A DNA stretch of 64,000 nucleotides from Phoronis australis (lineage: Eukaryota > Animalia > Phoronida): contig NMRA01000948.1 in assembly GCA_002633005.1 (NCBI GenBank), forward strand, positions 1-64,000, written 5' to 3'. This document shows positions 25,601 through 53,265 of this stretch, piece after piece (position 1 is the stretch's first letter; every line of letters begins with the position of its first letter). The notes beneath the pieces are model-generated. The model was not told the origin of the DNA and did not search any database. It saw only the letters and a program-made list of their open reading frames with translations. Made by a program: the position numbers and the translations under genes.

Positions 25601-28600
25601 GAGCAATAGGAGTTTGAGCGATTTCCTCAGTACGCAGAGATGGGCAAGTCTTATATGAAGGACTAGACAAACAACCATTTGCTACTCGATCCAGTCACAT
25701 GTGAACTGACTTGCCCTTACAAGGCAACATGGCCGGCTCCATATTTACAAGACAACATGGCCGGCTCCATATTACAAGGCAACATGGCCGGCTCCATATT
25801 TACAAGACAAGATGGCCGGCTCCATATTACAAGGCAACATGGCCGGCTCCATATTTACAAGGCAACATGGCTGGCTCCATATTTACAAGGCAACATGGCC
25901 GGCTCCATATTTAGAAGGCAACATGGCCGGCTCCATATTTACAAGGCAACATGGCCGGCTCCATATTTACAAGGCAACATGGCCGGCTCCATATTTACAA
26001 GGCGGTGTTAATGAAGAATGAATAAGTAAAGTTTCTCTTTTCACCCTCTGAATTGATTGGGAGCAGAAAGCAGTCCATCAGCATGGAGGCATTCATGCGA
26101 TAAGGGTAACATGACATGAATGTATGCCTTTCTACACGTAGACATCTAGTTTCACTAGCGCCACCTAGTGAATTCCACAGCTGCCCAATGCTTCAGTATC
26201 AGGTGTGGATGGACTTACTCTCTTTGCTCTGAATCTCAACTGCCAGAACTGCTTGAGTGATGTTATCCTTGTTTGACCGCATATCCTTGATCACCGAATT
26301 GTTCAGGGCATCCTGGGAGAAAACCAAATACAGCTGATGACAACAAGTTGCAGAGCAATCCGTCTGCTTTCATCCTAGTTATGACTAATAGCTTTAAGAA
26401 ATAAAAACTTTACAAATCTTCAAAAAAAGGTTCACTTAAGGTGGCAATAAATTTGCTTTATGTCGTGAAAACTAATTCATGATTTAAACCACTTACCTTT
26501 ATGAAAATAGCTTCAAATTGTTCCTTAGTCAAATTAGAAAAAAATGACGATCACTATTGCTTGAGACCAGGCTCCAACAGTTGCCTCGTCACAGCGCGTC
26601 ATTTTGTGTTTACATCATGGTCTCAATAAGTTAGAACACGCCATCTGTTTTTCCATAACCAGAAACCACTTCTCACTTCAGCAAGGAACAAGTGGAAGTC
26701 AGATTTAAAGCAACAAGAGGCCTAGGTCAATAGCAAGGACAGGGCTTGGAACGATTAATGACAAAAAAAGAGGAAAATTTTCCATTCCACAAATAAATAT
26801 GTCAGTGCGATAGAAATATTTTTGTGTTGTAAAATTTGACTGAATAATGTTTTGTATGATTAAATAAAATCAACATAATGATAAAAAACCAAATAGGAAA
26901 CTGAAAATTAAAACCAAAGAAGAAGAAATCGAAACCAAAAGAGGAAATCGAAACCAACAGAGGAAATCCAGTTAAAAGAGGAAAATTCCAAGCCCTGCTA
27001 GGAAAGTAGATTTAATGCCACTTTACTTCAAGAATGACAAACGCCATCAACAATTCGACAATCAGCTTAGTTAATTGCAACTATTATTTAATACATTTGA
27101 TAATAAATACAAAATAATCCATGATAACAGGTAATACTAACTTGAAATGGCTTGCAGTGGCTGTTGGTGAATCCTGAGGGTGCGGGGACATAGAAATAAG
27201 GTGCAAACCCATGCACGTGGGCTACAACACTGTTCCCTTCCTCTGTGATGCCAAACATGCGAATGATGGGCACAGGTCCTACCTGTGACCCGGGCATACC
27301 AGGTAGATGACTTCCTGGAATGACAGTAAAGAACAGTTGACCTCTCATTTTTCAATTTTTGTGATCAGGAATCCATGTTTAAGGTTACAGTAGAAATTCT
27401 TCAGTTTGATACACAATATGGCAGACAGGTGAAATTTCACTAACAAAAGTCTCAACTAAAACAACTTTTCAGGAAAAGTTATTTTGATTTTAGCATGCTT
27501 AGTGGTATGGCGTAACTATTACCGAACAAGAGGCATTTGCAACAATGTGGTAAGCCTCTGAAAATAGAAATGCGTCAATTTTAACAATTATGTTTGTCCG
27601 AAATTAAAGAACTTTTATCGTAAGTAGAACCTTTCTGACAAGTCTGGGTACTTAGCCAAATACTGACATATTTCAATTCAGTAAAAATATGCATCTTCTA
27701 TAATTACGTAGAAAGATTATAGACTTGGATTTTTGACTTTAACATCACATGACCCACACGACATTAAATGACAGTAAATTATTTTATTGTGATCTGAAAA
27801 CCTGGCAAAGTTTTACACAGAATTACAGTCACGGCCGTTGGAGATAGTGCAGTAAAAACGATACTCATTAAAGCACCATTTTAAAATAGGTCATTGCCCT
27901 AAATGTAGAATGTGTAACAACCTTGTCAACGATACAAACAGGAAGACATTTTATTAGGTCTCATAAAACATTATGTACGGAATTTTTATGAAGGTTTTTG
28001 GACGGGACAATGGAAGACAAGTTTATGGCCTTTAAGTTACAGCATGTACATAACAAATATCCCCTCCCCCCTCCTCCTGTACAGTTTCAACGCCAAATGA
28101 AAGCAGTTTCCAAGACCAGATAACAATATAGTCTACAGTGAAGGGTTCTTGCCTTCCGTTTGTTGAAGCTCACAAGTCATAAACCAATTATGTCCCCTGA
28201 TTACAAAAGCTCAGTGGAACATATCATATTAACTGGTATCAGTGGCTTTTAACTTAATCGTTTTTGGCTAACATTTATTTTATTTCTTTGGAAACTTTTC
28301 ACAAGGAATTCAATTTCAGAAGTCAAACAGACTGAAAAATCCCAACTTTTAGTGCATGATAGTACTTTATTGCCCTGAAGTCATGCTAATGCAGTAATTG
28401 TCCAGTTCACACAAAAGAAGTTAGACCAGAGTTCCTGATATTGAAGGATTCCGCCTATTGTGATTTGTGTACAACTCTATTGACGAAGTACTCAAGGCCC
28501 TGGTACGGGCCAAGTTTCTAATGCCATTTCCAGTTCTCCATATACCTGTGTAGGTATCTAAATCAAGCTGTTGGAAGATTAAGCTCTGCTTGCTGGGGTC

Positions 28601-29617
28601 CATCGTAGGTAATGGAGGTCTTACCCACTTTGGGTTGATCGTCTGCGACTCAGGTCCCATGCCTGAAAAGCAACAACGTAGATTAGTCCGGAAGCTAAAT
28701 GCCATTTTTTTGCTTCTTTTAACCTGGATTTGCCCGACAGTTTCTTCTTTGCTGTTTCATGTATCCTAGGCATAGTTATAGATGACACTGTATGTTAAAG
28801 GAGATTACCATCTTTGAAGATATTTATGGTCAATTCATCATACTTCACATGCCATAGAAGACACTTTGAATCACTTCTATGAACATGAAATTAATAATCA
28901 TAACAGTTGTTCGAACACTACGGCAACACTTTTGGTTTTGAAAGTTAATAAAATCAACTAAAAGACTTCAAAAGTAAAATGTGCCAAATTCATAAAAACA
29001 TGCACCTTTAAAAAGTGAATATTCTCTTTAAAGGACAGTTAATACTGCTATATTTACAAATCATTCAAAGTGGTGCAGCATTTAAAATAACTCGGAACTC
29101 ATTTGTACACAAAAATTGCTTCCAATACGAACGTTTATTTGTAAAGCAGAGAGATGGTAACAGAAGTAGTAGTCTGAGCTAGCTGTAATAGTGGTCCTCG
29201 TTGCAATTTAGGATGATAAAATACAACATTTTCTGTTGTACATGTACTGCCAGAGGGAGACAATTACCAACGTCTGGTGAATCATTCCTAAGCTCTGCTT
29301 CCATTTCGTCCAGCATTGCCAATTCAGCTTCAAAAGCAGATGGGTCTTCATCATCAAAGTCATTCCTGAAAAGAAATATCCCACAACCTCATAAACCAGG
29401 ATCTGCTTGTATTAAAAGACAGTTGTAGTACAATCAAACACATTTATTTAGACAGTTTGGCGAAAATATGTCAATGTTATGACAACATTGCTTATACAGT
29501 TATCATTAGATTATATGTTTTATTAGTTGATGCACGCAGTAACTGACACAAAAATTCTTACTTGGCCTTTTTAGATACAGGTCCACCTTTACCTTGGAAC
29601 TGCTTGCGTTTGTCCAT
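13664..29617 (-). CDS. POLD1: DNA polymerase delta catalytic subunit (3' partial)
   Basis: 15 coding exons: 29617-29562, 29365-29268, 28662-28546, 27314-27142, 26312-26219, 25369-25201, 23153-22915, 22219-22053, 20670-20425, 19698-19588, 18462-18271, 16654-16566, 15681-15565, 14973-14860, 13811-13664. Total 2130 nt, all phases consistent. Motifs: ExoI LSFDIEC, Exo[14 protein letters not shown], Exo[11 protein letters not shown], Pol [12 protein letters not shown], Pol [18 protein letters not shown]. Motif C (YGDTDS) and the C-terminal Cys clusters were not found in the window. Confidence 0.98.
15825..16335. repeat. Degenerate ~18-20 bp tandem repeat (GACACCATGACTCA(C/T)GT)
   Basis: Many imperfect copies in a POLD1 intron. 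Confidence 0.85.
18712..18866. repeat. 76-bp direct tandem duplication
   Basis: CAAGAATG(C/T)TGAAAACACAGGCC...GCTAATGTGA occurs twice. Confidence 0.9.
19793..19864 (-). mobile_element. tRNA-derived SINE head / tRNA-like relic
   Basis: A-box-like TAGCTGAATGG and B-box GGTTCGATTCC at tRNA spacing. The cloverleaf is degenerate. Confidence 0.55.
25717..26003. repeat. Minisatellite, 27-28 bp unit, about 10 copies
   Basis: Unit ACAAGGCAACATGGCCGGCTCCATATT(T). It explains the three overlapping ORFs at 25679-26021. Confidence 0.97.
26740..26997 (+). mobile_element. hAT-like MITE, 258 bp
   Basis: Perfect 12-bp TIR CAGGGCTTGGAA...TTCCAAGCCCTG. Flanked by CAAGGA/CTAGGA. Confidence 0.8.
27410..27625 (+). 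repeat. Dispersed repeat family (also about 34230-34460 and, inverted, about 59262-59460)
   Basis: Shared blocks TGAAATTTCACT, TATGGCGTA(A/G)CTATTACC and ATGTGGTAAGCCTCTGAAAA. Confidence 0.75.
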
Positions 29618-30710
29618 ATCCTGAAGAAAATGAAACAGAGTTCTTTTATTCTGAAAGACAATTTTGGCAACAGACCTTCTCACATTCACATTGATTGATA
29701 TCGCAAAGTTGGCCAAGTTTGCATTAACAGGCAATACTGTCAAATTTCAATAAAAATTCCACTCTGATAGAGAAGGCCCCTACGTAACCAGTGGCAACAG
29801 CTAAAACGGGTACTGTCACTAATAGAACGACCTGGAAATAAGAACTATGCTCTCTCCCTCACATAAAATTTTACCACGTGACAATTGGGTCCCACAGCAG
29901 CGCCACCAATGAAGGAATGGTTTAGAGGTCAAAAGGCACAAGAATACTCAGTCTGAACTTTCCTCATGTGAAAAATTTTATCAAAAGCTGCCTGGGAAAT
30001 TTTGACTACTGGTACTTGAACAGAATGCAGTCAATCTAGGGCTATTTTACCTTTTCTTTTGAAAAGTCTGAAAATCATTTAGGGTCAACACTTCAAGATC
30101 AAGTTTCGCAAGAATGCAGTCATTGAAAACAAATGACAGAAAAAAATTCCTGGAGAAAATTTTTAATTCAAGGTAGATGCTAAAGTATAGATTGGTCAGA
30201 CAATCAGGTATGTGGGTCCAGTATGGACATTCAACACCGTCAGAATTCATCCAAGGGGAGGCGTAATGAACAATTCCCATTTGGTTGCCCTCCCCTAGTT
30301 GAATACTTTTGGCCACATCAGTAACATGGTACAAACAGAAGAACTTACTGCTTGATTGGCCAAGGGTATTTATTCTATCATTTTCTTTCTCAAGTAGGCG
30401 ATTTTTCGAGAATGTTGTTTACAGTTAATATTGTTGGCATTGATGTATTTTCTAGTACCGTTATTTCAGCCAGGCAGCTATAGTATATAAAACAGATTTC
30501 ATCTTGCGCTTATTTTACAGAAATAGACTGTGATAAAATGCTTGGAATTCTCTGAACAACTTCTTTGGGTTCTTCCTGCACTCTCGTGGTTTTAAGACTT
30601 TAATTTCCATGAAAAAATTAAGTTGTGTAAATACCTTTTTAAATCATAGGGTCTGTTTTTAGAACAGAGCGCATGATAGGATACCATACTACAGTCATCA
30701 ACCAAACTCC

Positions 30711-32459: not shown

Positions 32460-35310
32460 ATGAGCGGTAGAGTTGAACAAACACCCATTTTGAAAGAGCA
32501 GCAAGCAGATGATCCCCCACCGCCCTATGATGGGGTGACCAGCCAGCCACCTGCACCCCAATACCAACAGTACCCACCCTATCCTGCACAGTCTCAGTAC
32601 CCACAACAGTACGGCACAGGTAATATGTCTGACAATATCAACAACTAGGCCTGTTTCATACTAACGTTGACGTGTCGATGTTTTGGGGAGTTGTGGTAAA
32701 AGTGCAAGACCACGCATGGATATAATGTATGATACATTTTTATTTTAGTGATATGTCTGTCGATATGTCTGTCGATCAGATTTCCAGAATTTCCACAACA
32801 GTGATAATTTGTGAGGTGCTAAAGGTGTTGTGCTGCTTGTGACAATTCACATGTATTACCACTACCACTACCATGAGTGAACAAAATCTGTTTTGACTTT
32901 TTGTCTGTAAGAAATACAATTTCTGAAAACAAGTGAACAGTAAGCAGTAGTGTCATTTTATAGTGTCTCAAACTTTTTATAGTTTGAAGTAATTTTCTGT
33001 TTAAATATAACCAATCTCTGGATAGAGCTAAAATACGATAATTTGATTGTGCAGAATTGTCTCAAATTTTATTTATTATATGTTTGAAGTAGTGTACTTT
33101 AGACCCTCAGTATTGTAAGTATAAGGTACAATGAAAACATTATGATATGGTATGGAAATGTTTTGCACTTATTGTTGAAGCAATGACGTGGTCACGTGGG
33201 GGCACAACAGGGTCTTGGCCTGTAGGTTCATTACAAAAAGGCCCTTTTGTTGAAACACCTTTCAATTTTGCGTTTTACTCCTCCTCGTTGATTGCACAGT
33301 ATTCCCAGGTTGCACTCATGGACAACAATTTCACATTTGCCCGAGTTGAATCCTTCTAGCTGTACCTGCCTAGTGTGTTGAGATACACAGGTCTAAACGT
33401 CATGCTTTATTTACAGGACAGACCCAGCAAGTGATCGTACAAGCCCCTGTGAAGTTAGTAAAGCTACTTGGTAGACAGCCTCAAGAGTGGGACTGTCAGT
33501 TCTGTCAAGCACACATGGTCACTATTACAAAGTACATCAGAGGCAACATGAATTGGCTAGCATCTGCAGTCTTGTGCCTCGCACTGTGAGTATACAGCCA
33601 TCAATAAACAAAGGGGTGGGAGGGGGGGTTAGAAAAGACACACGCTAGGGGATCACCAATGCAGGTGATAACAGATAACTGCAACCTGCAGAAACAAGAA
33701 ACTAGATCAACAACAGATTCTTGCTGCCTGAAATGTTGAATGAAAGATGAGACACGAGAACACAATGACGATCAGTGTTTCACTTACCAAAGCATTAGAA
33801 AAGAATGCTTTGGAAGTAAAGCAGTTTCAGTGAAAACTGTCATAGTTAACAAAAACATTAAAACACTTGCGAAATTTCTCAAGCAGGCTGGTAGACTTGC
33901 AGAGTGTGAGCAGTGAGATTTAAAGTACAATGTCTGTTGCCATGGGCCTGTAAGAAGGCCTAAATAACGTGTGGGATTTTCTGTTACTTTATTTCGAAAA
34001 AATTTTGACACCACTGTTCCATTATTATTATGTTATCATCAAATTTTACTTTCAAGATTAAACATAAAACTTGACCAGACCCGTGGGTTCTTTCACATGA
34101 ACTTTCAAATTCCATAAATGTGATTTTATAGTTTTCGACCAGACATGGCCAATCACTGAAAATCTGACTCTTTTTGGTTTAGCTGCAACCTCACCAATCA
34201 AACTTACGTACTGTTGAGGGTAAATGTTCTTCAGCTTGGTACTTTTATATGATGGACAGATGAAATTTCACTTTGTTGAATTTCTTAACAAATATAACTT
34301 TTTAGAGAAATTTATTTTGCTTTTAGCACGGTTTGTATGGCGTAGCTATTACCAAACAACATTTGGTAAAATTTTGAACATTTACAACTATGTGGTAAGC
34401 CTCTGAAAAATAGAAATATGGCAATTTTAGCAATTATTTTGTCCCAAATAAAAGAATTAATACCGTATAACCAGGTTACTGAATACCATGTAATTTTTTT
34501 TAAGTTCTATAATTAAATTGCACATAGATAGAGGTTAAAGTTTCAAATCGGTATTTCACGAAACCTTTTTGAAAGACTGCAGCACTGTTTTTCTGGGATA
34601 GTGCTACGGAACCAGCATTATGTACTGTAAAATGTCGTATTGACTAAGTCAACTCTTGAATTCATATAACGGTTGGCATTAGTAATTTACTTATCAAATT
34701 GAGGTAGATTCCTGTTTAAATAATGATGAATTATTGTTAGACTGTGGAATAAGCTCCTTGTCAGGTTCATGAAGAATGGAACTGTCTTGAGTTGGCACAG
34801 CTTAAAATGCCATCGACATTACAAGTTACCCTAGAACAAGTTACTAAGTTTAGTAGTAGTTTGCACTGGAGCAACTTGACTCATGTGTAATGTTCAATTT
34901 ACCCTACCTTATCGTTGTTGTGTGAACGCAAACGTACTGACAAAATGGATGAAACTACCCGCCATACACTTGCTCAGTTACGCACATAGCGTTGTCTCAT
35001 TTTTGCGCCATATTTGTCGCATGGTGAAGGCTGCCTGTGTAGTTTGGACGCTTGGCTGAATGGTGCACTCTAGAGCAAGTTGTTCTAGGTTAACTCTAAG
35101 TGTGCACACTTATTAAATGGCTGCGGACAAACCACAAGTGCTTTTATTTGACGGTTTTCATGATCGACTCTCGACTTTTATTTCAGACCCGGTATAACAT
35201 GGTTGGGATGTGCATGCATTCCCTTCTGTATGAACAGCCTGAAAGACATCGAGCACACCTGTCCCAACTGTAACCAGGTAGTTGGTGTATGGCAACACAC
35301 CTCTAACTAA
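32460..35310 (+). CDS. LITAF/CDIP1-family zinc-ribbon membrane-associated protein 1 (150 aa)
   Basis: Exons 32460-32619, 33417-33585 and 35187-35310. PPPPY motif, CQFC...hydrophobic segment...CIPFC...DIEHTCPNC. Confidence 0.93.
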
Positions 35311-36935: not shown

Positions 36936-39900
36936 TTAGGTTCCATACTTGTACAAAATACCACGTTGCAAGCTTGCGCCCTGACATGAAAAGGAGACCA
37001 GAGAATGGCGTAAACAGGTTATTTTTTATTACTAGACTAGATTTCCGCTTTTTGTGGGAAATGAAGAATTAGTGTTACCATAAGTCGTGAACATTTACCG
37101 TATCTTGGTACCTTTCAAAGCCAACAATAGAATGTCAGCTTTCTAATTTCCCAGCTGGCCACGTTTGGCCTACCCCGCTACACCATCCTTCCCAAAATTG
37201 ACCTTGCACCCTAACTGGCAAGAGGTCCTCTCTCAGTACCAAGAAGCTGGTCAGTAAGCCATGCATTTCATTACATAACATATCTGCATCCATGTAATCT
37301 GGGATATTCCATTTTGAAAAATGTAGGTCATGGTATGACCTCTAATATTCACTAGAGAACAAAACTAGAGCACACAAAACATTTGCTACTCTGTAACAAT
37401 GATGTATCTACAAACAATAGTGTGCCAACTGAATAGTGTTTAAGTTCAACAACCAGTCTGCTGACTGACAGCTGGCCTCCTCACACACATTGTGACCCAG
37501 ATAAAGGTTAGGTCACTTGTGCAGTGCAGCAGTGCAGCAGATATTACACATAATCCAAGCTAGAGGTCAGTTACTTATTGAAGTCCAACCAGTCAGCAGG
37601 TAAGTACAGATTTAGACTGATGTCATTCTGGTGTGATTAGGTTGATAAACAGATGGGTTACTTGAGGTGTTACTCTTTGATAACAAAGTATTGGAATCAT
37701 AACATGCATTCTCAATGAAAGTGAGTGTACAGGAAACAAATCTGGATAATGAATGTACTTGTGAATCCAGGTCAACAAGAAATGACAGGCAGTTCAACTT
37801 ACCACAAGATTAGTAGAATATCTAATATAAAAGCATTCATTTCAGCCAGAAAATATTGAGAAGGGATTTCAATCTTTTGTACATGAATCATGAAGAAATA
37901 TGGATGAAAGTCAACTGCATAAAATAACTGGAAAAACAGGTTTAAAGACCACAGAGGTCTTTGAAATTATGACATTCATCTCAGATGGGTTTACGCCCTT
38001 TGCAGGGTACCAGGTATTAGTTCTTAGAAAAAAGTGAACTCCTTGATCGAGTTATCCTATGATTTGGTATGAACAGATTCAAAATGGGTGTGCGACTGCA
38101 GCATTGCTTGAAATGATATTCCATGTCTTCAACAAGACTAAACATTGACCTGGACATTACGGGCACTAGTCGGATATAATGGACCCTAACTTATTCCAAA
38201 TAAATCCACTAAATGTAGGTCTAAATGAATGATTTTGGTATCGTTGCATTCCTCAGACATCTGGCTATTCGTACGAATCATTTTCACGACCCTCAATTAC
38301 TCTAGTCTATAGCTACGCTGTTCCGAACTCGGTCCACTTTAGCCACGCGCATCGTGAAATCGGCAGCCATTTCAGGGAACTTACTGTATCTAGCGACATC
38401 TATCAGCGATTTGCTACAACATGTGCTGTTCCTTTTTCATCAGTCAACGTCATTGGTCGATTTCGTCAATATTATTAACGTCAGTCGTTATTAATCATCT
38501 GCTCTCGTCATCACCTTCGTCGTCTCTCTCACGATCGTATCTGTCATCGTCATGTTATCGTCGTCCATGTTGACTGATGAAAAAGGAACAGCGCGTGTTG
38601 TAGCAAATCGCCGATAGATGGCGCTAGATATAGTAAGTTCCCTGAAATGGCTGCCGATTTCACAATGCGTGTGGCTAACGCTAAAGTGTACCAAGTTCAG
38701 AATGGCGTAGTTATAGACTAGAGTAATTGAGGGTCGTGAAAAGGATTTGTACGGATAGCCAGATGTCTGAGGAATGCAACGATACCAAAATCATTCATTT
38801 AGACCTACATTTAGTGGATTTATTTGGAATAAGTTAGGGTCCATTATATAAGACTAGTACCGACATTACGAACTAATACTTCAAGTGCAAAAATTAGCTG
38901 CTAGGGTAAACACATGACAGGCCATCTTTGGCTGGATCACATTTAGGTAATAGACAATGAGGTCCACTGGATATTCTCCAAGCACTGAGGTTAACATCAT
39001 TACAGTAAAAATTGCTGAAAGGACAGTCTCCCTAATTTCGTTTGGGACATGGTCGAATGAGGCATTCACCATATTTCTCAAATTTCGGACATGTCAATTT
39101 TAGCGGCACTGGTCGTATTTCACATTTCGGGCAGTGCATTTTTTCGTTTGATCGGGGGCTGAATGTAAATCTAAGAGTTTTGTGTGACATTTTACAAGTT
39201 TGTGATTGTGTAATTACACTTACTGAGTAATTAGTGTCTAAATGCTCAGTGCTCTCAGCGAGAGCACTCGGGAACGAAATGGTTTCATTTGCATATCACG
39301 TTTTGGTCGTGATAGACCGACGGGAAAAACTGCCCATACAGCTCCAATGGGTAATAAACTATTGAAATCGCTGTTCAAAGCGTGTCAAGTGAAAGGCCTT
39401 GTAACCCCTGAGATTCTATCACGAACATTTCGCGTTAAAGGCTATATATTTATATAGTGTTCTCCACCCTCAAAAACTCAAACAGGTCGCGTTTATAACC
39501 AGTTCGAAAGTTTACACAGTGTGAATCTCAAGCATGTACTCACGAACACACAAAATGATACTTTTTGTTCAAAATGAAAAAATCAATTGTGTGGTGTGCT
39601 ATTTAAACAGGTCAGAGGAAAAATCAAACAGGTCGCGTCGACCTGTTAAAACGGGTCATGAAGAACATTGCTTTATGAATGTAGATCATGCTCACAAAAT
39701 TAATAAAATAGACTTGGGACGATTCTTTTTTTGCCACATAGCATTTGTTGAAGGCTCGATCAGCCTTGTGTAATACTAAAAAGTACACATGGTTTGAGAA
39801 GAGCAAGTACATTCGTGAACAAAAAGAAATGTCCCTTTAATTGATGAACTATAATAATAAGACAAATAACAAGTAAACAAAATTGTTGTCCCATGCAAGG

Positions 39901-40980
39901 CGGGTGCAAGACGAGTACCCTACACCCCAAACAGCAGAACGCCCAACCTCAAATTGTAAAACCTGCCACTAGGTAATGTAGACTCAATCCCACATCTACC
40001 AACTACTCGTGATCACAATTTCAACTCCCAAAATGCATGTCGTTTTAATTACTTGGAATTTAGTGAGCAGAATTTTGAGTTGCACCAAAAGCAACTCATG
40101 TCTCGGCGACAACAAATACTCAAGATGAAAACCTTTTACTGAAGGAAACAGGGAGGTGTTCTTTGCTCATGCACACAAATGATCATATTTAGTACGGCAT
40201 TTCAGACCCTGAAATAAAACATAGTATTCTGATATAAAAGCAACAATAACACCTAGACCAGGCTTTATGACATGCTTTCAATTCCTAAGAACTTTGGAAA
40301 TTATTCCTGGATATTATGGATCTGGTCAATCTTAATCCTTCTGCACCGATTAAACTTAACATGATTTTGAAAAAGCCTCAAGTGCTAAAATGACCCTGTG
40401 GTTACCTGAATGGGGAAATATCCAAGACCTACAAAATTTTTGACAACTGTGATGTGACTACATTTATATTCCAGTTTCAGCATTCAAATCTCGTCATAAT
40501 AGTGCTAGACTCCGTGAGACACGTCATCACTAAACATCCAAATACTGACCTGCTTTCCCATCCTTGCATCAAACCTAAGACATTTGCTGCACAGATTACC
40601 AAATATTTACAATTACGACATTCAGCCAACAACAAAATGAATGTAGACTACGTGCTTAGTTAAGAAGTGTATTTTAGAATGCTGTTTTATCGAAAATTTT
40701 ATTTATCTTTTTTCCATTATTTGATGAAGTGCAACTATGCTATGAGCAAAAGTGTTGGAAACATGAAAACGATTAATGAGAATACTCAGCTTTGTTAATG
40801 TTTTTCTCAATTAAATGGTTGCGTAAAACATTCTTAAAAAATGGCTTGTCATATTCAGTTGTTTTTGTATCAAGCTATAATAAATCTGTGGTAAGAAATC
40901 TTTGCTTGTGAAAAACCGTGAATTCTATTCCATAACTCAACATTCCAACCTCACCGACCAATCACTTCAATAGCCGCCAT
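36936..40980 (-). CDS. Candidate 45-aa microprotein gene made of microexons (MAAIEVIGRFDARMGKQVLDISPFRYSTNLVGASLQRGILYKYGT)
   Basis: Exons 40980-40955 (26 nt, donor GTGAGG), 40574-40550 (25 nt, tcttag/GTCAGT), 40428-40406 (23 nt, ttttgtag/GTAACC), 37821-37803 (19 nt, ttttatattag/GTAAGT) and 36980-36936 (45 nt, ccttttcatgtcag, ends TAA). They total 138 nt in one open frame. Start context is CTAAAATGGCGG, and ATTAAA lies at 36805-36800. Confidence 0.65.
38162..38861. mobile_element. Mutator-like (MULE) non-autonomous foldback element, 700 bp
   Basis: About 285-bp terminal inverted repeats (GGCACTAGTC...GACTAGTACC) around a ~120-bp spacer. Exact 9-bp TSD GACATTACG at 38153-38161 and 38862-38870. 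Confidence 0.92.
40473..40535 (-). ncRNA. Candidate box C/D snoRNA in intron 2 of the microexon gene
   Basis: GTTTA-GTGATGA(C)-CGTGTCTCA-CGGA(D'?)-GTCTAGCACTATT-ATGACGA(C')-GATTTGAATG-CTGA(D)-AAC, with a short GTTT/AAAC terminal stem. It is on the host strand and fills about half of a 121-nt intron. Confidence 0.5.
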
Positions 40981-40984
40981 TTTA
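40973..40984 (-). promoter_or_regulatory. YY1 consensus overlapping the start codon
   Basis: AAAATGGCGGC. This overlap is typical of housekeeping genes with short 5' UTRs. Confidence 0.55.
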
Positions 40985-41125
40985 GATGCGTTCAATATAC
41001 AGCGACACGATCTTTGAAGGCACATTTGCTACATCGTTTTCGTGCCATTGGAGTTTCAGGTTATTTGTTGTTGTCTAATACTTTACAAGTTCTTTCTCGG
41101 TTGCATTACTCTATCCATGCGTCCA

Positions 41126-41215
41126 ATGCCAACGAAGTTTTACTGCTGTGCTGTGGGCTGCAACTCCGATGTGAAGAAGTTTGATAAACTGGACAAATAC
41201 ACAAAAATGTGCCTG
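41126..41215 (+). pseudogene. THAP zinc-finger N-terminal fragment
   Basis: MPTKFYCCAVGCNSDVKK resembles the THAP start M-x-C-C-A-x-G-C-x-N/S. The downstream FP, W and CxxHF motifs are absent. Confidence 0.4.
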
Positions 41216-42106
41216 ATTTCCAAAACGAGGTCACACGCTTTTATATCTCCAGGACAAAGGAGAGCTCTATCGCCATGTAATAAGGGACAGCCCTATTGTG
41301 AATGCGCCCAAAAGATTTCATGTCTCCTTCAGTAAAGGAAAGGTGTATTTTCATGCCTAATACTACATTTTTGAAACACAAATTCTTGTGACATGAGTGT
41401 TCACTTAGGCAAGGGTACGTTGAAGGTTATGCAGGACCCTAGAAAAATGCATATCTCAGAAATGGCTCTCTATGTTCGCAGGAAACTTTCATCTACTATC
41501 CTTTGAGTAGTTCTCCAAAATGTTATCAAAATCAAAAGCTGCGTCAAAAGAGAAAACTATTTTAGAAAAATATGACAGTGTATGAGTTTACAGGTTTTCT
41601 ATTTTTAAATGTCTTAATTGCTTAAATAGGGAGTGGGCGTTCGTTTTGAATACTGAAAAATGGGGATTACTAAAACATGGACTTCCTCAATTAAGTTATA
41701 AGCTTTGACCGGACCTATAAAACAACTCCACCCATAGTTTTGATGATTTTATTACTAACTGCCAACTTTTTCCATTGTCTGCTGTAGTGTAATGGACCAG
41801 AAATTTGCTGACTACTATTTACATTCACTTACAATACTCTGCCATTTATCAAATGGTGTTTATGTTCATCTGCAGAGCTGTAAACTGGAAAGACTTGGGA
41901 GTTTAAAGTAAAAATTTAGGTATTTTCAGGGTTGGGGGTTGGGCCAAACATGGGCATTAATATGGCCGAGTATGGTATACTAAATTAGAAAATGCAACAA
42001 TTCCTTTGCCAAAAATGGACTAAACCCAAGTCTAATGTATAATGCAGTTAATCTTCCTTGCTCACCAACATTTTTCAAACTATTGACACTGTCCTTTTCT
42101 CATTAA

Positions 42107-42532
42107 AGATGCTATGTCTCATTAAATTGTGAATATGCAAATGAAGTTCTAGTTTACAAACAACCCGAGGTCTTCCGGTGTGCCGGAAACCATCCAAGAA
42201 CCAGTTACCATTATAATCTTGGGAAAGTCTCTGTTTGCTAGACAATTGTTTAGGTAAATGAGTATAGTTACCCTAATAAAACAAGGAACAGTTTTTATTA
42301 TTTGTTCATTTCACTATCAAATAACAATTGCGCAATATTTGGAATTACTTAGGTTTTCTTTTTGTTCACACTTGTTTTTTAAGTGTATCAGTTGTGGCGT
42401 TTTCTTTAAAACCGCGTTTTATTTGTAAATTGTTTCTTTCCTGATTATACTTGTGCACACAGTTCTTCAGGAAGTCAAAAGGTGGTGCTTGCTACAAATT
42501 TAAATATTCAGTTTTAATGAGTCATAGCATCT
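42107..42532 (+). mobile_element. Kolobok-like MITE, copy 1
   Basis: TTAA|AGATGCTATGTCTCATTAAA ... TTTAATGAGTCATAGCATCT|TTAA, giving a TIR with AG termini and a TTAA target duplication. Confidence 0.8.
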
Positions 42533-43258
42533 TTAAGGTAATGGTAACACTTCTAGTACTAACTGTTATTGTTTTCTCATAGACTATGATTCATTGCTAG
42601 GTCAGTTCTCTTCTCACCAACCACTAAGAACTGATCGTAGTCTATATTAACATATTTCTGTACTTACACACCAAAGCATGACACTAGTCATGTATGTCCT
42701 TCCTCTTAACGAAGTAAGACATAGGCACTCAAGCAACTGTCAGATAGCTCTCTATTTGTGTCAATGATGACAAAGTACATTTGCATTATGTATCTTGATG
42801 TTTGACTCATTTCGCTCTTGCGATTATAAAATTAATGCTGGGTGTCATCTTCCACAACTTTGAAGCTTCGAGTGAAATCTCGCACACTGTAGAACTCCAT
42901 TGTCAACCTCTTACATATTTCATATCTTTAAAATGACTTGCTGTAGCACTTGTACAAATTTTAGCTTTTCTAATTTTTGATGAGTCCAACTCAGTTTTGT
43001 TCACAAATGGTCCTTTAACCATGGAGTAGGTCAACCACAGATCATAGAAGCCTGAACAAGTCTGGTAACAGCGTAATTAAAAAGTGGACGGAAATTGCAA
43101 CATAGGCAAATATATTATGAGTTATACTAGTTGTTTGGAACTTGGAACACATTATCGATGCAGGAGTGAGTTTACGATAAAAATATGTATGCTTTCTTTA
43201 AAGGTAAAAAATAAAACTGCATTTCATAATGCCACCCTTTTCATTCTTAACAGTGCAA

Positions 43259-43729
43259 ATGTCGAAACGAAACAGCTACAGTGTCAAGTACAAACTTGAA
43301 GTCATTGAGTGGCATTGGAACAATGGAAGCAATATCTCAGAAACAGCACGTCGTTTCAAAGTTGACAGAAAGAGAGTCAGGGAATGGCTGACGAATGAAG
43401 GCATACTCTTAATGAACAGTAAGGGTGCTACAGGTAATTTGAAACGTCTCCATCGTGGTGGCAAAGTGTGTGAGAAGTTGGATTCTGAACTCTTAGTCTA
43501 CATGATTGATGAAATGGTTGGAGGAAGGACATTGACCAACGCTGAGCTGAGAGAGAAAGGGATGGAAATAGCGAGTCGCATCAAGGGAATGGAAGGCTTT
43601 AAAGCATCCGATGGCTGGCTCAGGAGATGGAAACGCAGAAACCATGTCGGGATATGCCATAGAACGATTGCAGCTGAAAAGCCTGCCGAAGATTATATGG
43701 TACAGGTGAAGATCGAAGAACCTTGTTGA
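43259..43729 (+). CDS. Pogo-transposase-derived DNA-binding protein (Brinker/psq-type HTH + CENP-B/Tc5 HTH, 156 aa, no DDE domain)
   Basis: RNSYSVKYKLEVIEW...NISETARRFKVDRKRVREW, then LDSELLVYM...GRTLTNAELREKG...FKASDGWLRRWKRRNHV. A splice acceptor (cttttcattcttaacag) ends at 43253, 5 nt before the ATG. Confidence 0.85.
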   Translation: MSKRNSYSVKYKLEVIEWHWNNGSNISETARRFKVDRKRVREWLTNEGILLMNSKGATGNLKRLHRGGKVCEKLDSELLVYMIDEMVGGRTLTNAELREKGMEIASRIKGMEGFKASDGWLRRWKRRNHVGICHRTIAAEKPAEDYMVQVKIEEPC

Positions 43730-43754
43730 AATGACTATATACGCAGCTAAAACA

Positions 43755-44330
43755 AAGGTAATTTGTACCGGACGATGTGTATATTTTTGACAGGGCTGCT
43801 TCCACAACTAGGAAAATCCCAGGCTCGAAATGGAAGAAGATCGCACAGACTGGTGAAAGCATCACTATGTGCTATGTGAAACTATTGACAGTCAGAAGGA
43901 CACGCCCTTTATTGTTTCCAAAGTTGTGCCATCAGGAAAGTGGCCTTGGATCTACCCACGACATCAAAGTGGCCACACATAGAATGGAATTGATGGCAGG
44001 AATTGTTTCATTGCTAGAAAACGAATAACTATGACGACCTAAGACTTAAATGGTTGTCAGAGTCGCAATTGGTGGTCATTGAAGCTCTTCAGCAAAGTAG
44101 GACATGACCTGTATACCAGTGAGAAGTTAATCTGTCATCATTTGCAAGAGCAATAACAATATTCATAGTGTCGAAAACTTATCAGGCAACATCAATGGGA
44201 AATCTGAAAATGTGGCATTTTGCCAAGATCACATGGTTACCGTCACCAGGGATTGTGTTGAAGACGTGGCATCAAGATGGGAGGGCTCGCATTTGCTCAA
44301 GGCTGCAGTGACCACCACTCAATTAACAAC
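43755..44330 (+). pseudogene. Decayed pogo DDE transposase domain
   Basis: Frameshifted pieces GNLYRT / VYIFDRAASTTRKIPGSKWKKIAQTG / KHHYVLCETIDSQKDTPFIVSK. By eye they are colinear with the pogo consensus GNMDET-P.WFD...T....G.K...I.TTG.EK...TV.L....DG.KL.P.IIFK. Confidence 0.55.
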
Positions 44331-44781
44331 AGCTTCATTGATTCCTCAGTTACACGGAAATGGAGACCACTGGGAGCTGGAAATTTGATTTTTAATAGCA
44401 ATGTTGACCACATCTGTGCTCGGACAACCGTGGCTATTTGATGTGCACAGTTTTGTTGTACATTAGTTGAAACACATATATGTTGCTTCTAACTAGATGT
44501 AAATTAAAATTTAAGTTTGTTCCATTCGCACGATCGACCATAAAATATAACAAACAATATTTTTGTCGTAGAAACAAAAAAATATTTGCCTATGAGTGCT
44601 CATCGGCCACGAAAGGTGGAAAATAAAGTATCTTAAAGTGATTATAAACTCGCTTTCGTTAAGACCAGTTTCCATTATAAAATTGGCTCTACTCAGAAGA
44701 GTAATGATTTCCCATTTCAGTTCTTCCAACCACTAAATCAAACGCAATGTTTTGTTAGAATGTGGGTTTATAGTCTCTTAG

Positions 44782-45225
44782 AGATGCTAGGTCTTATTGA
44801 ATTGTGAATATGCAAATGAAGTACTAGGTTTACAATCAACCCCGAGTCGTCCCGTGTGCCGGATAACATCTGAGAACAAGTTACCATTACCATCTCGTGA
44901 AAGTATCATTTTGCAAGACTTTTTTACGTAAGTGAGTATGGTAATATTTCAACTTTACCCTTAGCTAATGAAACAAGGCACAGTTTTTATTATTTGTTTA
45001 TTTCACTATCAAATAATGAGTGCGAACTAATCGGAATTACTAGGGTTTTTATATGTTCAAACCTGTTTTTTTAAGTGTATCAGTTGTGGTGTTTTCTTTA
45101 AAACCGCATTTTATTTGTAAATTGTTCCTTTTCCTGATTATACTTCTACACAGTTGTCCTGGAAGTCACTAAGTGGCGCTTGCTACAAATTTAAATATTC
45201 ACGGATTTAATGAGACATAGTGTCT
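44782..45225 (+). mobile_element. Kolobok-like MITE, copy 2
   Basis: Colinear homolog of 42107-42532 in the same orientation. Ends TTTAATGAGACATAGTGTCT|TTAA. Confidence 0.8.
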
Positions 45226-48200
45226 TTAACTGCTGACCCAACCATCTCAGAAGTGATGCATGTGGATCTGAGAACAAAAACCACTTTAAGAGTGCCAAAA
45301 CCATTTTAAGGGCAGCCATGATTTTATCATATTTTGGATGGAAGATTTGCTAGAAGCGTTACGAATAAAACAACATGTGCCATCAAAGTTTAAAGTCCTT
45401 GTAGGCAAGCTTGAAAACGTTAAGAAATGCACGACCTTGTTCAAGATTAGCCTATATTATACTAGCTTGGCCATCATTTTCCATGGAGCCGTCTGGACCT
45501 TAATCATGCTTCCACACTACCCTCGCAAAGTCACACAGTACATGTCAAAAATAATTGGACAAAATGATCCACAATTCCTTGTCATGATAACTGAACGCAT
45601 GTGGAATTCCCTGTTATGGCGGCTGACCCAAGTGGAATTCACGATCAAGAAAGCTAAAAATGACCCATCATTACAGTAAATGGTGTTTTGTTTGATTACT
45701 GTTGTTGTGTACTATAAAGTCATGTTTACTTAGAGCGGGGGAAGTCGGTTGCTTGGTGACAATAATTATGAATTGGGTTAACTCGAAATTTATTGGGTGG
45801 CACTTTAAGGGTCCTCTTTGCAGAAGCCCATGCATGATCCAAGGTCATGTGGGACTCTTGTCCCATGAATGCACGTGGTGAATCATACTTGTTAACCCAC
45901 TGATTTGGCAGGACTGCCTCGGGAGGCTCACCAATTAGTATTTTAATTCTCCAGGTTCTACCACCAATTTAAGAAAACCCGCTAAATCCTGCATTTTTTC
46001 TGAACCCTTGTTTGCTGAAACAGGACCCTGAGCAGCTCCACTTGCAATCTGACTACTGGCAAATAAGTTTTTTTTTAGTAGATGCTCTTTTGACTTGCTG
46101 TTATGTGACTAACCTCAAAAGAATTTCCATCTCATCAAGTCCCAAGTAATTTGAGATAATTTTTCTCTTGTGTATTTCCTGCTTAATGAGGTTTTCTAAC
46201 ACAATGCAATTGTCACAGCCACTGAGGTAAAACTGGTGCCTACTGGGGGAGCAGCTAGAATCGCTGGATTTTTATTCGACCACTCCAAATTCTATGGTTG
46301 CAGTGCATATAGTCAGCGTCCCATCCACCAAAAGTATCCTTCAGCAGCCTGTTGGTACCCTTGCTTGTCTATTAAATTTGTCAAAAACTGCTCGAAAGAT
46401 CACAACAGAGTTACATAGAGGGGCTACACCAGGTCCAGTCAATGTTGGGCTGTATACTATTTGTCATGCAGTGGTAGGTGTATTTCAATACTTTGCCTTG
46501 CTATTATTTATTTTGAAACATTGGCAATTACGCTGATCAACATTCTGTTCTTTATTCTTACGTTAAAGACAACCTAGTGAATATCAAGGCACACAGTATG
46601 ATACTGATCTTATTCAAAACCACATACTAATGATAACGGTAAAATATCACCAATTCCATTTTTAACTTTTAAAGGCTTCTAACTTTGTGAATGCCCATTA
46701 CCTTTTAACACTTTGTAAAAAACATGAGCACAACCTAGAAACTGCTTTCACATTATATCCAGGTTCTCACTCATTCTCTTGCATACATTCACTGATAAGA
46801 CCGAGCTCAGAGGAGTAGGAGACACTTTGTGCAATGCTCGATTGTCAGCCAGTAAGGCTAGGATTCAAACCTAGGTATCCCAAACGAGAGTCCGGAGATG
46901 ATCCACACACTCTCCTCTGTTGGCAGGTTTTGTAAGCAGGTTAAAGACTGGCTAAAGCTTTCATTGTGTGCAACTTACCTTTTAGGGAAATGCGAAAAAA
47001 AAAAGTTTCATGGTGTGTCTTAAATTGGTGACACTGAAGCAAGAAGGCAAGGTTTCCTAATGGTGACTGACTCAACAAACTTATTCAAGCTTTTAAGCAT
47101 AATTTGCATTCTTTTTCAAGCTAATCACACTAGGCTTAGTAAGGGCTAGGAAATTAACGCTTGGGATTAAAATAGTAGTGGCTGCTCTATTAAGCTTGTT
47201 CAAAGTGATGGCAAAATTTCACCAATTTTGGGCTAAACTAATTGTCAGAATTGCTTTTGCCATTATTTCAGGGCTGCTAATATAGCTGTGAATGCCTGCA
47301 ACTTCTAAAATGACTGTATCTTGGTAATATAATTTAACATGACAAAGCATTGCTTTCTGCTTGATATCTCTTATGAAAAAATGAGAAAGCAAAATTTCAT
47401 TTACTTGTCATGTTGCGTCCTAAATTGGGGGAGATTATATGTATTATAAAGGGAAGGGTAATCAGGTTAAGAGTGATATTTGGTTAAAATAGAGATTTCT
47501 GATTATCTCAGACAAATTAATAAAGTTCTACAGGATTATTTCTAAATAATTATGCATCCTGAAAAGTGACATTCGCGGTCAAGTACATTTCCCCATCTCT
47601 GATTACTTGCACTTTGGATTTTGTTTGACATTGAACTTGTTATTGTATTACTAATTAGTCATGTAATAATTTAGACTGTCACCTGTCATTCTGTGAGTCT
47701 TACTCAGACTCATAAATTGGTCAGTGTTCTCCACAACAGAAAATTCTTGAACGTTTGAACGTCCATGTGCATTCATGCTTTAAAGAGTTTGTGTGTTGTC
47801 TTGGAATAAATGCATTGAAATGGTCACAAAAGTCCAAAATGTCATACTTTTAAAGTGACTAATCTCCTTATACTCACATTGCGTTGTAAGTAAGGCAAAC
47901 TCGCTACTGCAAAAGTCAAACTCTATGCAGTGACGAGTCAAAACAGGTTGTGGAGAACATTGGTTTCTAGTGGTTGTTGCGTACTAGAATCAGGATGCAC
48001 GTACTCCTAAGGTGAGCTCTGGAAGAGTCTAGATGTTCCATTTTACCAATTTCTGCCGGAGTTAGCTCGTTCGTGTCTGGAACACAGCACTGCCCGTTCA
48101 TGCCACGCCTAAAGCATTGTTAATGCCGTGTGCGCAACATAATTTTGTATCTTCGGATTACAAAAGGCATATTTACACACGCTTCATGATCGTACCTCCA

Positions 48201-49577: not shown

Positions 49578-50401
49578 ACAGGTCAAACACAGAAATCCAA
49601 TCAGACTTAGTAGTGGGCATCTTGCCCATGATCTCCATTGTGTGTTAGTCCTAACTTTTGTACTTTTTGGAGCCAAATTTCTTGTGGGTGGCGCTGTCAG
49701 GCTGCATGTAAAACTGAACACAAGCATGTAAAAGTGAACATTTTGAAAAATGCAAGGTGTTAAGCTGAATGCAGGCGTTTGAAACCAGAAAAGTATAATA
49801 CTGTAAGTTAATGATGCTTCAAATAAAATGATCAAAAAATGTTACTCACTGGAGTATGCTACATCTCACTTTCCTATACGAACACAACGATAGTATCAGA
49901 GTGTTCCACAGGCTGTTATAGCAGGGTGCCATACTCTCTTTAAATTTCAGCTGTCCACTCTGCGCTCTCCTTAAATTTCTCAGGTTGCCCTACTACATTT
50001 GAACACACACTCAAAATGCCAGGAAGTAAACAAACGGAAGTCGGAATTGTATGGCAAAAAATCATAACGACCAGATCGTGTTTGCATGTGGGACTACGCA
50101 AAGGATACTGGATTTAAAAGGGGGAAACTGGTCATCAAAGAGCACAACAGATTTCTGTTAGAGTAGAAAGAAAGAAAAACCAACGACCCCGCGACCTCAG
50201 GAGATGTGGCTGACATTTACAGAGTTCGCTGGGTGTTCACTTCAGGTATCTCTATTTCAATTTCGGCTCTTGCCCAGTGGGGTTTGGCAACCTCAGATCC
50301 CGTTTGGTAACCTGAGAAATTTGCCTGGTCGCATTTGGCAAATTGGCTGTGCTAGGATGGGAGAATTACATCAGAAAGTAATGTTAGTTTCAGCAGAGGT
50401 C

Positions 50402-53265
50402 ATGAACCCCAAAGAACAAGAAGCCACCGGTACTCCTCCACAGTACAGTCAAGGACCACCCCCACAAGGAGCCTACCCACCTCAAGGAGTGCCCCCGCAA
50501 GGAGCCTACCCACCTCAAGGAGCGCCTCCGCAAGGAGCCTACCCACCTCAAGGGCCACCACCACAGACAGGATATCCACCACAGGGACAACTGCAGCCAG
50601 GATATGTTGCCCCTGTCCCAGGTAAAACTAAGGAAGACACTATAACAATCAGCTACTACATAATTCACGTTCAATGTTAAACTTGCCAAGTGCTTCCATA
50701 CCATTATGAAAGACTTTGTTTGAGTAGTTCGGCAACTGTCTTGAAAAACTATAGATTTCACATTATTAAAAGAATGTGTAAAAAGCCTGTAGTATTTGAT
50801 TTTTGACTTTTACCAATCTGCCACTAACTGGGTAAGAGTAAATTCAAAAGCGGAACATTTTCAAAACAATTTCAGAAGAAATAGCTTAAAGTATAGTTGA
50901 ATCTGATATGGTGTTTTGAAGTCGTCCTACATCTTGAGGATTTTCATAATGAACTGCAGTCACTGATTCTATTGTTGGTGTTTAGGGTATGATCCTACAT
51001 AGTGCACACCAAAATAGTATGTTACCGTACAGCATTGTGAAGTTTTCATTTAAAAAGGGTTTCGTTAAAATCGACCAAGGGGATATTTGCTATGAATGCA
51101 CCTTTCCTAAAAATGAAATTTTGACTTTTTAAAACTTATCTTTATAATCTCTGATCTTTTTTCTTTCAGGAAATAACTATGTATTTTTACTGGTTGACAT
51201 GGCCAGGTTTTTTGTTATAGGAGTTATAATGAACGCCACTAAATAATGTTTCAAGTTACCTAAAGTCACTTTCATGAAAAACGCCCCTGTAGTAGTTAAT
51301 ATAGAAACTTAAGGTTATCTCAAACCTTATTTAGTGACCTCCATTCTAACTCCTATCAAAAAAGGTTTTGTCAATTAGTAGAATTATGTATTTACTAAAA
51401 GAAAAAACATCAGGGATTATAAAAATATTTTGTATCTATGTGCCATTATTATTAATAAGTTAACACCCTTTTAAGTCAATTTTTCATTTTTAAGAAAGGT
51501 ACATTTATAGCAAACTAAACGGTCGATTATAATGAAACCTTTTTTAAATGAAAACTTGTCTTCGCTTTCCCCCGGCATCTTTCTATCATATGTATACCTC
51601 TCAAAGTTACAGTGACTCAGTGAATGAAAGGGCAACAAGATACATACGGAGCTGCTCTATGGCTGGGGGTGGGAGATTTGTTTTGAGTGACAGCCCTGTA
51701 ACCTTTGACTTCGCATAAGTATTAAACAAATTTCCATGCGGTTGTGCGGTTCCAAGGTGGTTCTGCTAAATCTTTTTTCTCGCTACTTATGTATTTCGTT
51801 TTCTTAAGTTCCTTGGTTACGAAGATAACTAACAGTATTTTGCTGGAAATATGTGAAATATTGTAAAAATGACCAATTTTTGAGAATAAGGTTTGAGATA
51901 TCCTTAAAGCAAAGGGTTTCATTTTCATCACAGCTCAAACAGTCATTGTGACTCAGCCCCAGACACGGTTCTCGCAAAGCCCAATGTCTATGACCTGCAT
52001 GTACTGCAACCAGACCATCGTCACGGCAACTAACCACAAGCTTGGAAGCATGAACTGGATTGGCTGTGGAATTGTTTGTGCTGCAGGGCTTGTACTGTAA
52101 GTATGATGATAAATTGTGATAAATTGTTTGTGCTGCAGGACTTGTACTGTAAGTATGATGATAAATTGTTTGTGCTGCAGGGCTTGTACTGTAAGTATGA
52201 TGATAAATTGTTTTTGCTGCAGGGCTTGTACTGTAAGTATGATGATAAATTTACAAAACAGAAGTTCTTACTCCATGCTATAACTAGATTATCCATTGAG
52301 CCAGTTTAGGGCCATACATAATTAGGGATTTGTTTGTTAGATTTGGGAGTCAAATTAACAGGTCACCAGGCATAGACACCAAGAGAGGCTTTCAGGCAAA
52401 ATTCTAAAAGAAGTGTAAGATACTGGTGGCTCAACTTCTAGGCTGGTCACCCATCTGTGTAAAAAAATGGCAGATCCTAATCAAACCTGCATGCCTGTAG
52501 ATTTTCTTCAAATTGCGCTCAACCCTAGCTGAATTACCAAAGTTACATTATTATATGTACCTTTCTAGCATAGATGGACACATTTGGTGGCAGTTCTAGT
52601 TTTTAACATCTTCCAAATCAAACAAATGATACAGGAATCAATATATGGTCATTCGTTCCGCCAACAAAATTGAAGACTGAACGCCATTTAAGGCGATGCG
52701 TTCGAGGTCAAAAGAAAACGTACCAAGGGCTATGGTGCGGTCACCCGTCAGCCAGCCACGCCAACAGGAGGCAGGACAAACGAGGGACCTGTCTACCATC
52801 TGCACTGTCCTCTCTCAGCATTGGCTCACAGATGGACCAACCTGCATGACCTCTGTACGTCATTAAGTTGACGAGGAATATGGCTGACTGACAAGAGTTG
52901 CAAATGAAGTCTGTTTACAATCATAGTGAGAGCAGAGACAAAAAGTTTAAATGACAGAATTAGAAATATTAATTTCTAACTGGAATAAATCAAATTTGCG
53001 AAGATGAATCAATGAACTCAGTTCCATATATGGCCTTGATCATGTGTTATGAAAAACGTTTCAGAAGAACAAAAATTTCTACCCCAAAACTAAGGATTGC
53101 ACTGCAAAGGGGTTCTGGGGAATAATTTTTCACTGTTGTTTTTTCAGTCCACTCGTATGGTTAGGGTGCCAGTTCATCCCACTCTGTATTCCTGGAATGA
53201 TGGATGTGGAGCACAAGTGTCCAAGCTGTGGCAAGTTTATCGGCATGTACAACAGACTGTCTTAG
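50402..53265 (+). CDS. LITAF/CDIP1-family protein 2 (166 aa)
   Basis: Exons 50402-50621, 51934-52096 and 53148-53265. PPQY motif, QG(P/V/A)PPQGAYPP repeats, CMYC...WLGCQFIPLC...DVEHKCPSC. Confidence 0.93.
51040..51557. mobile_element. Degenerate foldback/MITE-like inverted repeat in LITAF-2 intron
   Basis: AAGTTTTCATTTAAAAAGGGTTTC...TTTGCTATGAATGCACCTTTC is mirrored by GAAAGGTACATTTATAGCAAA...GAAACCTTTTTTAAATGAAAACTT. No TSD identified. Confidence 0.7.
52070..52250. repeat. 42-bp tandem repeat x4 spanning an exon/intron junction
   Basis: Unit ATTGTTTGTGCTGCAGGGCTTGTACT|GTAAGTATGATGATAA, with GTAAGT at 52097, 52149, 52191 and 52233. Confidence 0.95.

Follow-up and report, generated by a model that had tools for sequence, protein, structure and literature searches.

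A truncated Passer-type transposase in Phoronis australis forms the last exon of a spliced transcript and is probably kept as a DNA-binding gene

Has a host kept the DNA-binding half of a transposase when the catalytic half behind it is decayed? This question is raised by a 156-aa open reading frame (ORF) in 64,000 nucleotides of Phoronis australis DNA (contig NMRA01000948.1, positions 1 to 64,000 of the forward strand, hereafter the window). A sequence-only reading had proposed that a pogo transposase was domesticated in place at this site, with an intact DNA-binding half and a catalytic half decayed behind a new stop. Our results suggested that the locus is probably a single-copy, spliced and transcribed gene derived from a Passer element, whose DNA-binding half is open, whose catalytic half has decayed, and which is kept by the host as a predicted regulator. 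The features of the locus are collected in Table 1.

Table 1. Features at and around the Passer-derived locus (positions in the window)
Feature	Position	Strand	Evidence or remark
Upstream exon, 3' end, probably untranslated	37567..37599	+	RNA read ends; donor CAG/GTAAGT at 37600
GT-AG intron, 5,654 nt	37600..43253	+	Donor GTAAGT; pyrimidine tract and AG at 43252-43253
Unrelated 434-bp MITE in intron, 24-bp TIRs starting TTAA-AG	42103..42536	.	Sequence
Left arm of 15/16 inverted repeat bracketing the remnant	43101..43116	+	Not Passer TIR type
Last exon: 5-nt leader, ORF, 3' UTR	43254..44640	+	RNA depth; 3' end approximate
DNA-binding half of transposase, 156-aa ORF	43259..43729	+	Pfam, homologues, AlphaFold, Foldseek
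BrkDBD helix-turn-helix, aa 4-47	43268..43399	+	Pfam PF09607, E 3e-6; Brinker 2glo fold match
CENP-B-type HTH_Tnp_Tc5, aa 73-132	43475..43654	+	Pfam PF03221, E 7e-9
VKIE psi-K-x-E motif, aa 150-153	43706..43717	+	Low-pLDDT, probably disordered tail
New stop codon TGA before catalytic domain	43727..43729	+	Sequence
Start of DDE domain, decayed, now 3' UTR	43757..43922	+	First catalytic D = Y, two frameshifts
Candidate polyadenylation signals ATTAAA (44503), AATAAA (44622)	44503..44627	+	RNA depth fades there
Right arm of 15/16 inverted repeat	44579..44594	-	Not Passer TIR type
Downstream member of that MITE family (81% identity between the two copies)	44778..45229	.	Sequence

The window has 38% GC and is animal DNA with introns, POLD1, LITAF-like genes and many MITEs. 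Exons of POLD1 (the DNA polymerase delta catalytic subunit) lie at 22841-29620 on the minus strand, and a LITAF-like gene (Pfam zf-LITAF-like) lies at 32460-35310. Proline/glutamine-rich exons built like the LITAF-like gene were found at 50162-50680 and 61031-61519, which suggests a tandem cluster. A duplicated gene pair (2438-4634 and 7611-10821) has cysteine-rich C-terminal exons that are 92% identical over 509 bp; the pair has no Pfam match, and we take it to resemble short-chain collagen C4-like proteins. The 72-aa ORF at 41117-41335, starting with CCAVGC, has no Pfam match either; it presumably begins like a THAP zinc finger and may be a P-element-type relic. The 5,654-nt intron also holds a 700-bp palindromic element (38162-38861) with 293-bp arms of 91% identity. 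The MITE family with two copies in Table 1 looks abundant, with many reads continuing into other flanks, and its TTAA ends presumably are of Kolobok or piggyBac type. That these two flanking copies form a composite element was rejected, since their identity is 81% and a separate pair of TIRs bounds each copy.

The double helix-turn-helix (HTH) frame that had been read from the sequence was borne out by the ORF list and by Pfam. The ORF runs without interruption to the C-terminus ...VQVKIEEPC, and both of its domains exceed the Pfam cut-off. AlphaFold (24-row alignment) gave the protein a mean pLDDT of 83 and two helical domains, with values below 50 from aa 134 onward. When this model was searched with Foldseek, the DNA-binding domain of CENP-B (1hlv) was the sole match under E 0.001 (E 4.7e-5). 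Brinker (2glo) reached a TM of 0.78 by target length and an rmsd of 1.5, at a Foldseek E of 0.43. A profile search of the PDB returned these two structures and nothing else, and the ESM Atlas returned generic CENP-B/BrkDBD clusters only. In the predicted model, the fold of the DNA-binding half is intact.

Passer elements are recognized by BrkDBD plus HTH_Tnp_Tc5, DD35D, short TIRs and TA duplications (PMC7386202, PMC9976928). The domain pair is present in the ORF, and its nearest intact relatives carry DDE_1 with DD35D. Compared with intact pogo transposases of the Passer type (DD35D), the ORF shows 44-49% identity. Among longer proteins, the closest were three DDE_1-bearing transposases with lengths of 354-440 aa (44-48% identity); P0002, P0003 and P0012 are 439-440 aa long and have DD35D, with 35 residues between D2 and D3. 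Judged by sequence, the ORF derives from a Passer transposase of the pogo superfamily, and the ATG at 43259 is the start codon of the ancestral transposase. The window copy is not itself an intact Passer element: it has no ORF of 400-500 aa, and DD35D is gone (stop after aa 156, D changed to Y, frameshifts).

No orthologue of near length was found among 10 candidates, and the three longer matches to the ORF are transposases, with no orthologue among them. Among the best 150 of 989 representatives, no full-length match in a single stretch exceeded 47% identity. On a 41-row tree (the query plus the 40 best-scoring of 133 double-HTH matches), P0005 was nearest at a path length of 1.12, and the terminal branch of the ORF was 0.58. 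These missing orthologues are not proof of lineage specificity, because the host has no close relative in the databases: a POLD1 exon of the window showed 63-77% identity to molluscs, cnidarians and others alike, with a maximum of 77%. The label "lineage-specific", which the gene had been given earlier, is thus not borne out. Many DDE-less proteins with a BrkDBD/CENP-B double HTH were found among the homologues; one of these, P0004 (2283 aa), has nine matched stretches with acidic linkers between them.

A decayed pogo DDE region had been described behind the stop as far as 44330. We aligned a profile built from 11 intact relatives in a frameshift-aware manner. The segment 43757-43922 scored 44.8, against 22.2 ± 1.8 for 20 shuffles (maximum 25.8). 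In 43930-44330, the middle third scored 18.5 (shuffles 18.9) and the last third 22.5 (shuffles 19.3, maximum 32.2). The description therefore stands for the first segment, and the end point 44330 is unsupported, since the likeness past about 43930 equals that of shuffles. The catalytic remnant is visible to frameshift-aware alignment only; plain tblastn gave no separate catalytic-domain match at the locus, and Pfam found no domain in the longest open piece. In the remnant, 21 of 54 residues are the same as in P0002, frameshifts lie at about 43781 and 43870, and the family motif NMDQT, which contains the first catalytic Asp, reads NLYRT. The stretch that separates the end of the ORF from the remnant contains two in-frame stops, the TGA at 43727 and another at 43748, and has lost about 5-6 codons by deletion.

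What the sequence-only reading overlooked is that the ORF belongs to a longer transcript, in which it lies on the last exon and is joined to upstream sequence by splicing. Three raw-read RNA runs (X6, X7 and X8; same species label, 2026, one study, about 18-19% of each run covered) contained 57, 51 and 142 reads over this exon, respectively, on a single strand throughout. The expression was roughly 3-10 FPKM. Depth was mostly 3-25, dropped to about 1 at the 3' end, and was zero over 42746-43183 in all three runs. Loose read ends at 43251 matched 37567-37596 exactly (five reads in X6, three in X8, none listed in X7). This spliced junction makes the relic the last exon of a transcript and fixes its sense strand. 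No internal splice joints in 43254-44640 were listed in the RNA runs, so the DDE remnant is 3' UTR. Because a TAA stands in frame at 37551, the upstream exon is probably not translated. Expression, which had been named earlier as a check, was thus found as one-strand, spliced transcription in all three runs, and host exon-intron structure was present too, with junction reads in two of the three. Contigs of X5 (presumed RNA) spanned only 43936-44298 of the exon and were excluded from the expression evidence.

The pattern of decay was then compared between the two halves. When nine intact relatives were compared pairwise, conservation was higher in the segment with the first catalytic D than in the DNA-binding part for 35 of 36 pairs, with a mean lead of 18.6 points. 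In the window copy, this contrast was reversed in 8 of 9 comparisons (35% for the remnant versus 49% for the DNA-binding part, both to P0001). When family-conserved columns were counted, 20 of 25 were retained in aa 1-128 versus 11 of 22 in the remnant (Fisher p 0.04; P0023, with an internal deletion, was left out). The p value ranged from 0.005 to 0.14 by threshold, and with the linker included it was 0.08-0.14 at the strictest thresholds. No stop or frameshift was observed in the 156 codons, compared with about 9-13 expected (Poisson) if neutral divergence is assumed to be 0.15-0.3 per site and frameshifts to arise as often as in the remnant (2 in 55 codons); this test is inflated, because the frame was selected for openness. 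All three variants in the ORF (43339, 43366 and 43666, at S27, D36 and T136) were synonymous (p 0.032 given transitions and 0.008 given all changes, n = 3). The tail carried 4 substitutions and a 6-nt deletion at 44144. There were 7 substitutions in all, and the RNA individuals are not the DNA source individual. If the gene is functional, a selected and a neutral half adjoin here, and the 3' UTR would serve as an internal clock and as a control for selection on the DNA-binding domain. These indirect results suggest that the gene is probably under selection.

The same locus could be a transcribed fossil: a dead Passer copy would then supply the last exon to a transcript that is non-coding or has no function, and its front half would be open by luck or by past selection that has lapsed. 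Such a fossil would fit the low expression and the failure to find orthologues. It would also fit the variant density, which is not lower in the ORF (3 in 468 nt) than in the tail (4 plus the indel in about 700 nt). Moreover, the DNA-binding half has drifted further than intact members (20 of 25 conserved columns versus 25/31 to 28/29 by leave-one-out), with R62K, R86M and V92L among the family-conserved residues lost and CHRT in place of RRGT in the linker. On the other hand, a fossil accounts poorly for the undisrupted 156 codons, the reversed conservation contrast, the purely synonymous ORF variants and a frame that stops directly past the double HTH. We consider it unlikely. In PMC13548663, dN/dS and synteny served to reject many single-copy, TIR-less candidates as decaying pseudogenes, and relics of this sort that lack synteny or proper expression are described there as often being pseudogenes; the present locus passes on expression and splicing.

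Copy number and element ends bear on two further explanations. DNA run X1 gave one full contig at a minimum of 80% identity and a side match of 51 bp, but a second copy at that level was not found. The count comes from this one run, from which the assembly itself may have been made, and contigs can show that a sequence is present but not that it is absent. TA-CCGTA or TA-CTGTA repeats, both short, terminate the related metagenome loci. When 14 distinct ends from related loci were made into a PWM, it found no Passer-type TIR within 41-47 kb (best score 11.4 versus 29-36 for real ends). Many near-identical TIR-flanked copies, which had been named as a refutation of domestication, were not seen: X1 showed no further copy from 80% identity upward, and TIRs of the family were absent. 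The earlier statement that TIRs are lacking holds for the Passer type and fails for another type, since a 15/16 inverted repeat brackets the region (43101/44594; matched by 5 of 500 shuffles). As a Passer TIR this repeat was rejected, not being of the TA-CCGTA type. It could instead bound a non-autonomous mobile element of about 1.5 kb that codes for its own truncated transposition repressor and is under selection for the benefit of the element itself. The model for this is the P-element KP, a truncated repressor of transposition. The bracketing position would suit this idea, as would the length, given that Passer elements range down to 1.6 kb (PMC9976928); the repeat type, the lack of a second copy in X1 and a transcript start outside the bracket, more than 5.5 kb upstream, speak against it, and we regard it as very improbable. 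A shade more improbable still is a chimeric protein of the SETMAR or POGK type, in which upstream coding exons feed the ORF as a C-terminal exon. The exon is indeed joined to upstream sequence by splicing, an in-frame run of 15 codons (37554-37599) is free of stops, and AG sites occur at 37558, 37562 and 37564; but the TAA at 37551 stands in that frame, and these AG sites have no pyrimidine tracts. The LITAF-like gene lies upstream on the same strand and its proline-rich first exon is an example donor, but this gene ends in a stop of its own, with a polyadenylation signal near 35610, and the ORF begins at the ancestral transposase ATG.

We prefer the reading as a spliced Passer-derived gene kept by its host. 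The domestication of the DNA-binding half that had been proposed is supported by the single copy in X1, the absent family TIRs, the spliced RNA and the three synonymous variants, and a host role as a predicted DNA-binding regulator is likely. Sequence and RNA show that a Passer element is located 3' of a spliced exon and that, through an acceptor 5 nt ahead of its ATG, it forms the last exon. They also show a short deletion and the TGA that close the frame just past the second HTH. With its stop in the final exon, the mRNA would be spared junction-dependent decay. Selection has probably kept the DNA-binding frame alone, as suggested by the decay contrast and the variants. The protein is predicted to read GGCGYY-like boxes, the GC-rich boxes of the ancestral transposon ends. 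Most speculatively, it might act as a repressor at host promoters or at sites that derive from Passer, and SUMO on VKIE may or may not take part.

The predicted DNA target was derived from the DNA-reading residues. The recognition-helix stretch DRKRVREW and the stretch FKASDGWLRRWKRRN match the intact relatives. The ends of these relatives often carry AACGCCC or AGCGCCC, whose reverse fits the Brinker site GGCGYY (PMC3738585). Binding to GGCGYY is predicted because the DNA-reading stretches match those of relatives whose TIRs carry (A)AACGCCC. Among unbiased terminal arms, the CGCCC core was present in L003, L008, L013 and L027 and not in L018/L019; the share of GGCGYY-bearing ends in the PWM set is circular, since the TIR pattern was partly chosen on the GC box. 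GGCGYY was not enriched in the window (32 versus 26.5 ± 5). There is a precedent in JRK, a domesticated pogo-type protein that has retained binding to the ends of Tigger, its parent element (PMC13538051). If the present protein is functional, the balance tips slightly towards its binding TIR-like boxes. As an observation apart, the Passer-like ends L003, L008, L013 and L027 hold the reverse of GGCGYY, which hints at a transposon origin of Brinker's specificity.

The new C-terminus does contain the psi-K-x-E consensus (VKIE, aa 150-153) that had been pointed out. It is the sole such motif in the protein, and a motif of this kind arises in 27% of shuffles of the protein. Within 60 aa of a double HTH, psi-K-x-E was found in 11 of 96 DDE-less matches (3.1 expected) and in none of 21 DDE-bearing ones (0.5 expected); three of the 11 proteins look like kin (about nine independent), and truncated gene calls may account for many of the 96. 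P0014, which the tree places in a separate clade, ends in ...DYVAVKQEKPDC... and has the tail motif VKQE. The deletion in the window copy appears to have joined an ancestral VK to IE and so created VKIE. That SUMO on this putative site matters is doubtful. A wider hypothesis, for which these motif counts and P0014 offer a lead but which we hold to be quite unlikely, is that Passer transposases were cut repeatedly and independently across invertebrates to "double HTH + SUMO tail" repressors reading GGCGYY in Passer ends. If true, the locus would be caught mid-process, with a deletion that created the SUMO site immediately ahead of the new stop. The same process would have run independently and in parallel in P0014, and a route would be given for Brinker-like repressors from transposons.

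How does this gene compare with known systems? The earlier statement that CENP-B, JRK, TIGD and POGK keep a DDE-like domain agrees with PMC7386202, in which all vertebrate pogo domesticates keep DDE. DDE retention, the mark of the POGK/POGZ, CENP-B, JRK and TIGD domesticates, is absent here. The novelty implied by that comparison was too high, because DDE-less domesticates have been published in Drosophila (cag, PMC4231638; CG4570 and LOC26532114, PMC13548663). In cag (CG12346), the pogo double-HTH part is likewise kept, DDE is absent and there are no TIRs. It differs in having the CENP-B_N plus HTH_Tnp_Tc5 architecture of CENP-B/pogo, whereas the window gene has the Passer BrkDBD; in having lost DDE by internal deletion, and not by a stop with decay visible in the 3' UTR; and in having orthologues under shown constraint, whereas none were found for the window gene (PMC4231638). 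CG4570 and LOC26532114, which followed the "DNA-binding module" pathway, also kept the HTH and lost DDE, and LOC26532114 resembles the window gene further: an intron is spliced out of its 5' UTR, it is modestly expressed, and part of its C-terminal region is preserved. In contrast, these two are Tc1/mariner-derived, with dN/dS of 0.12 and 0.7 and synteny shown (PMC13548663).

The BrkDBD fold is common to the window protein and Drosophila Brinker (2glo). Brinker consists of a single HTH plus co-repressor motifs. The vertebrate POGK comes from the same parent family and has the same BrkDBD and HTH_Tnp_Tc5 pair, but it kept a whole DDE (DN35D) and gained KRAB, and the window gene has neither (PMC7386202). 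Passer (PS) transposons, as in the related loci, have short TA-flanked TIRs; the window copy has neither such TIRs nor an in-frame catalytic domain (PMC9976928). Human JRK binds the ends of its parent transposon (PMC13538051) and keeps DDE, unlike the DDE-less window gene. A catalogue lists 121 CENPB-type TE-derived factors across animals (PMC10027918), and no Passer-derived DDE-less host gene was found in the main texts of open-access papers. In conclusion, keeping the DNA-binding module alone is an already known route, to which the window gene probably adds a Passer-family case. If functional, it would bring the DDE-less route, which the papers cited here describe for Tc1/mariner- and pogo-derived genes of Drosophila, to the family from which POGK and POGZ arose, and it would be a clean snapshot of transposase domestication through truncation.
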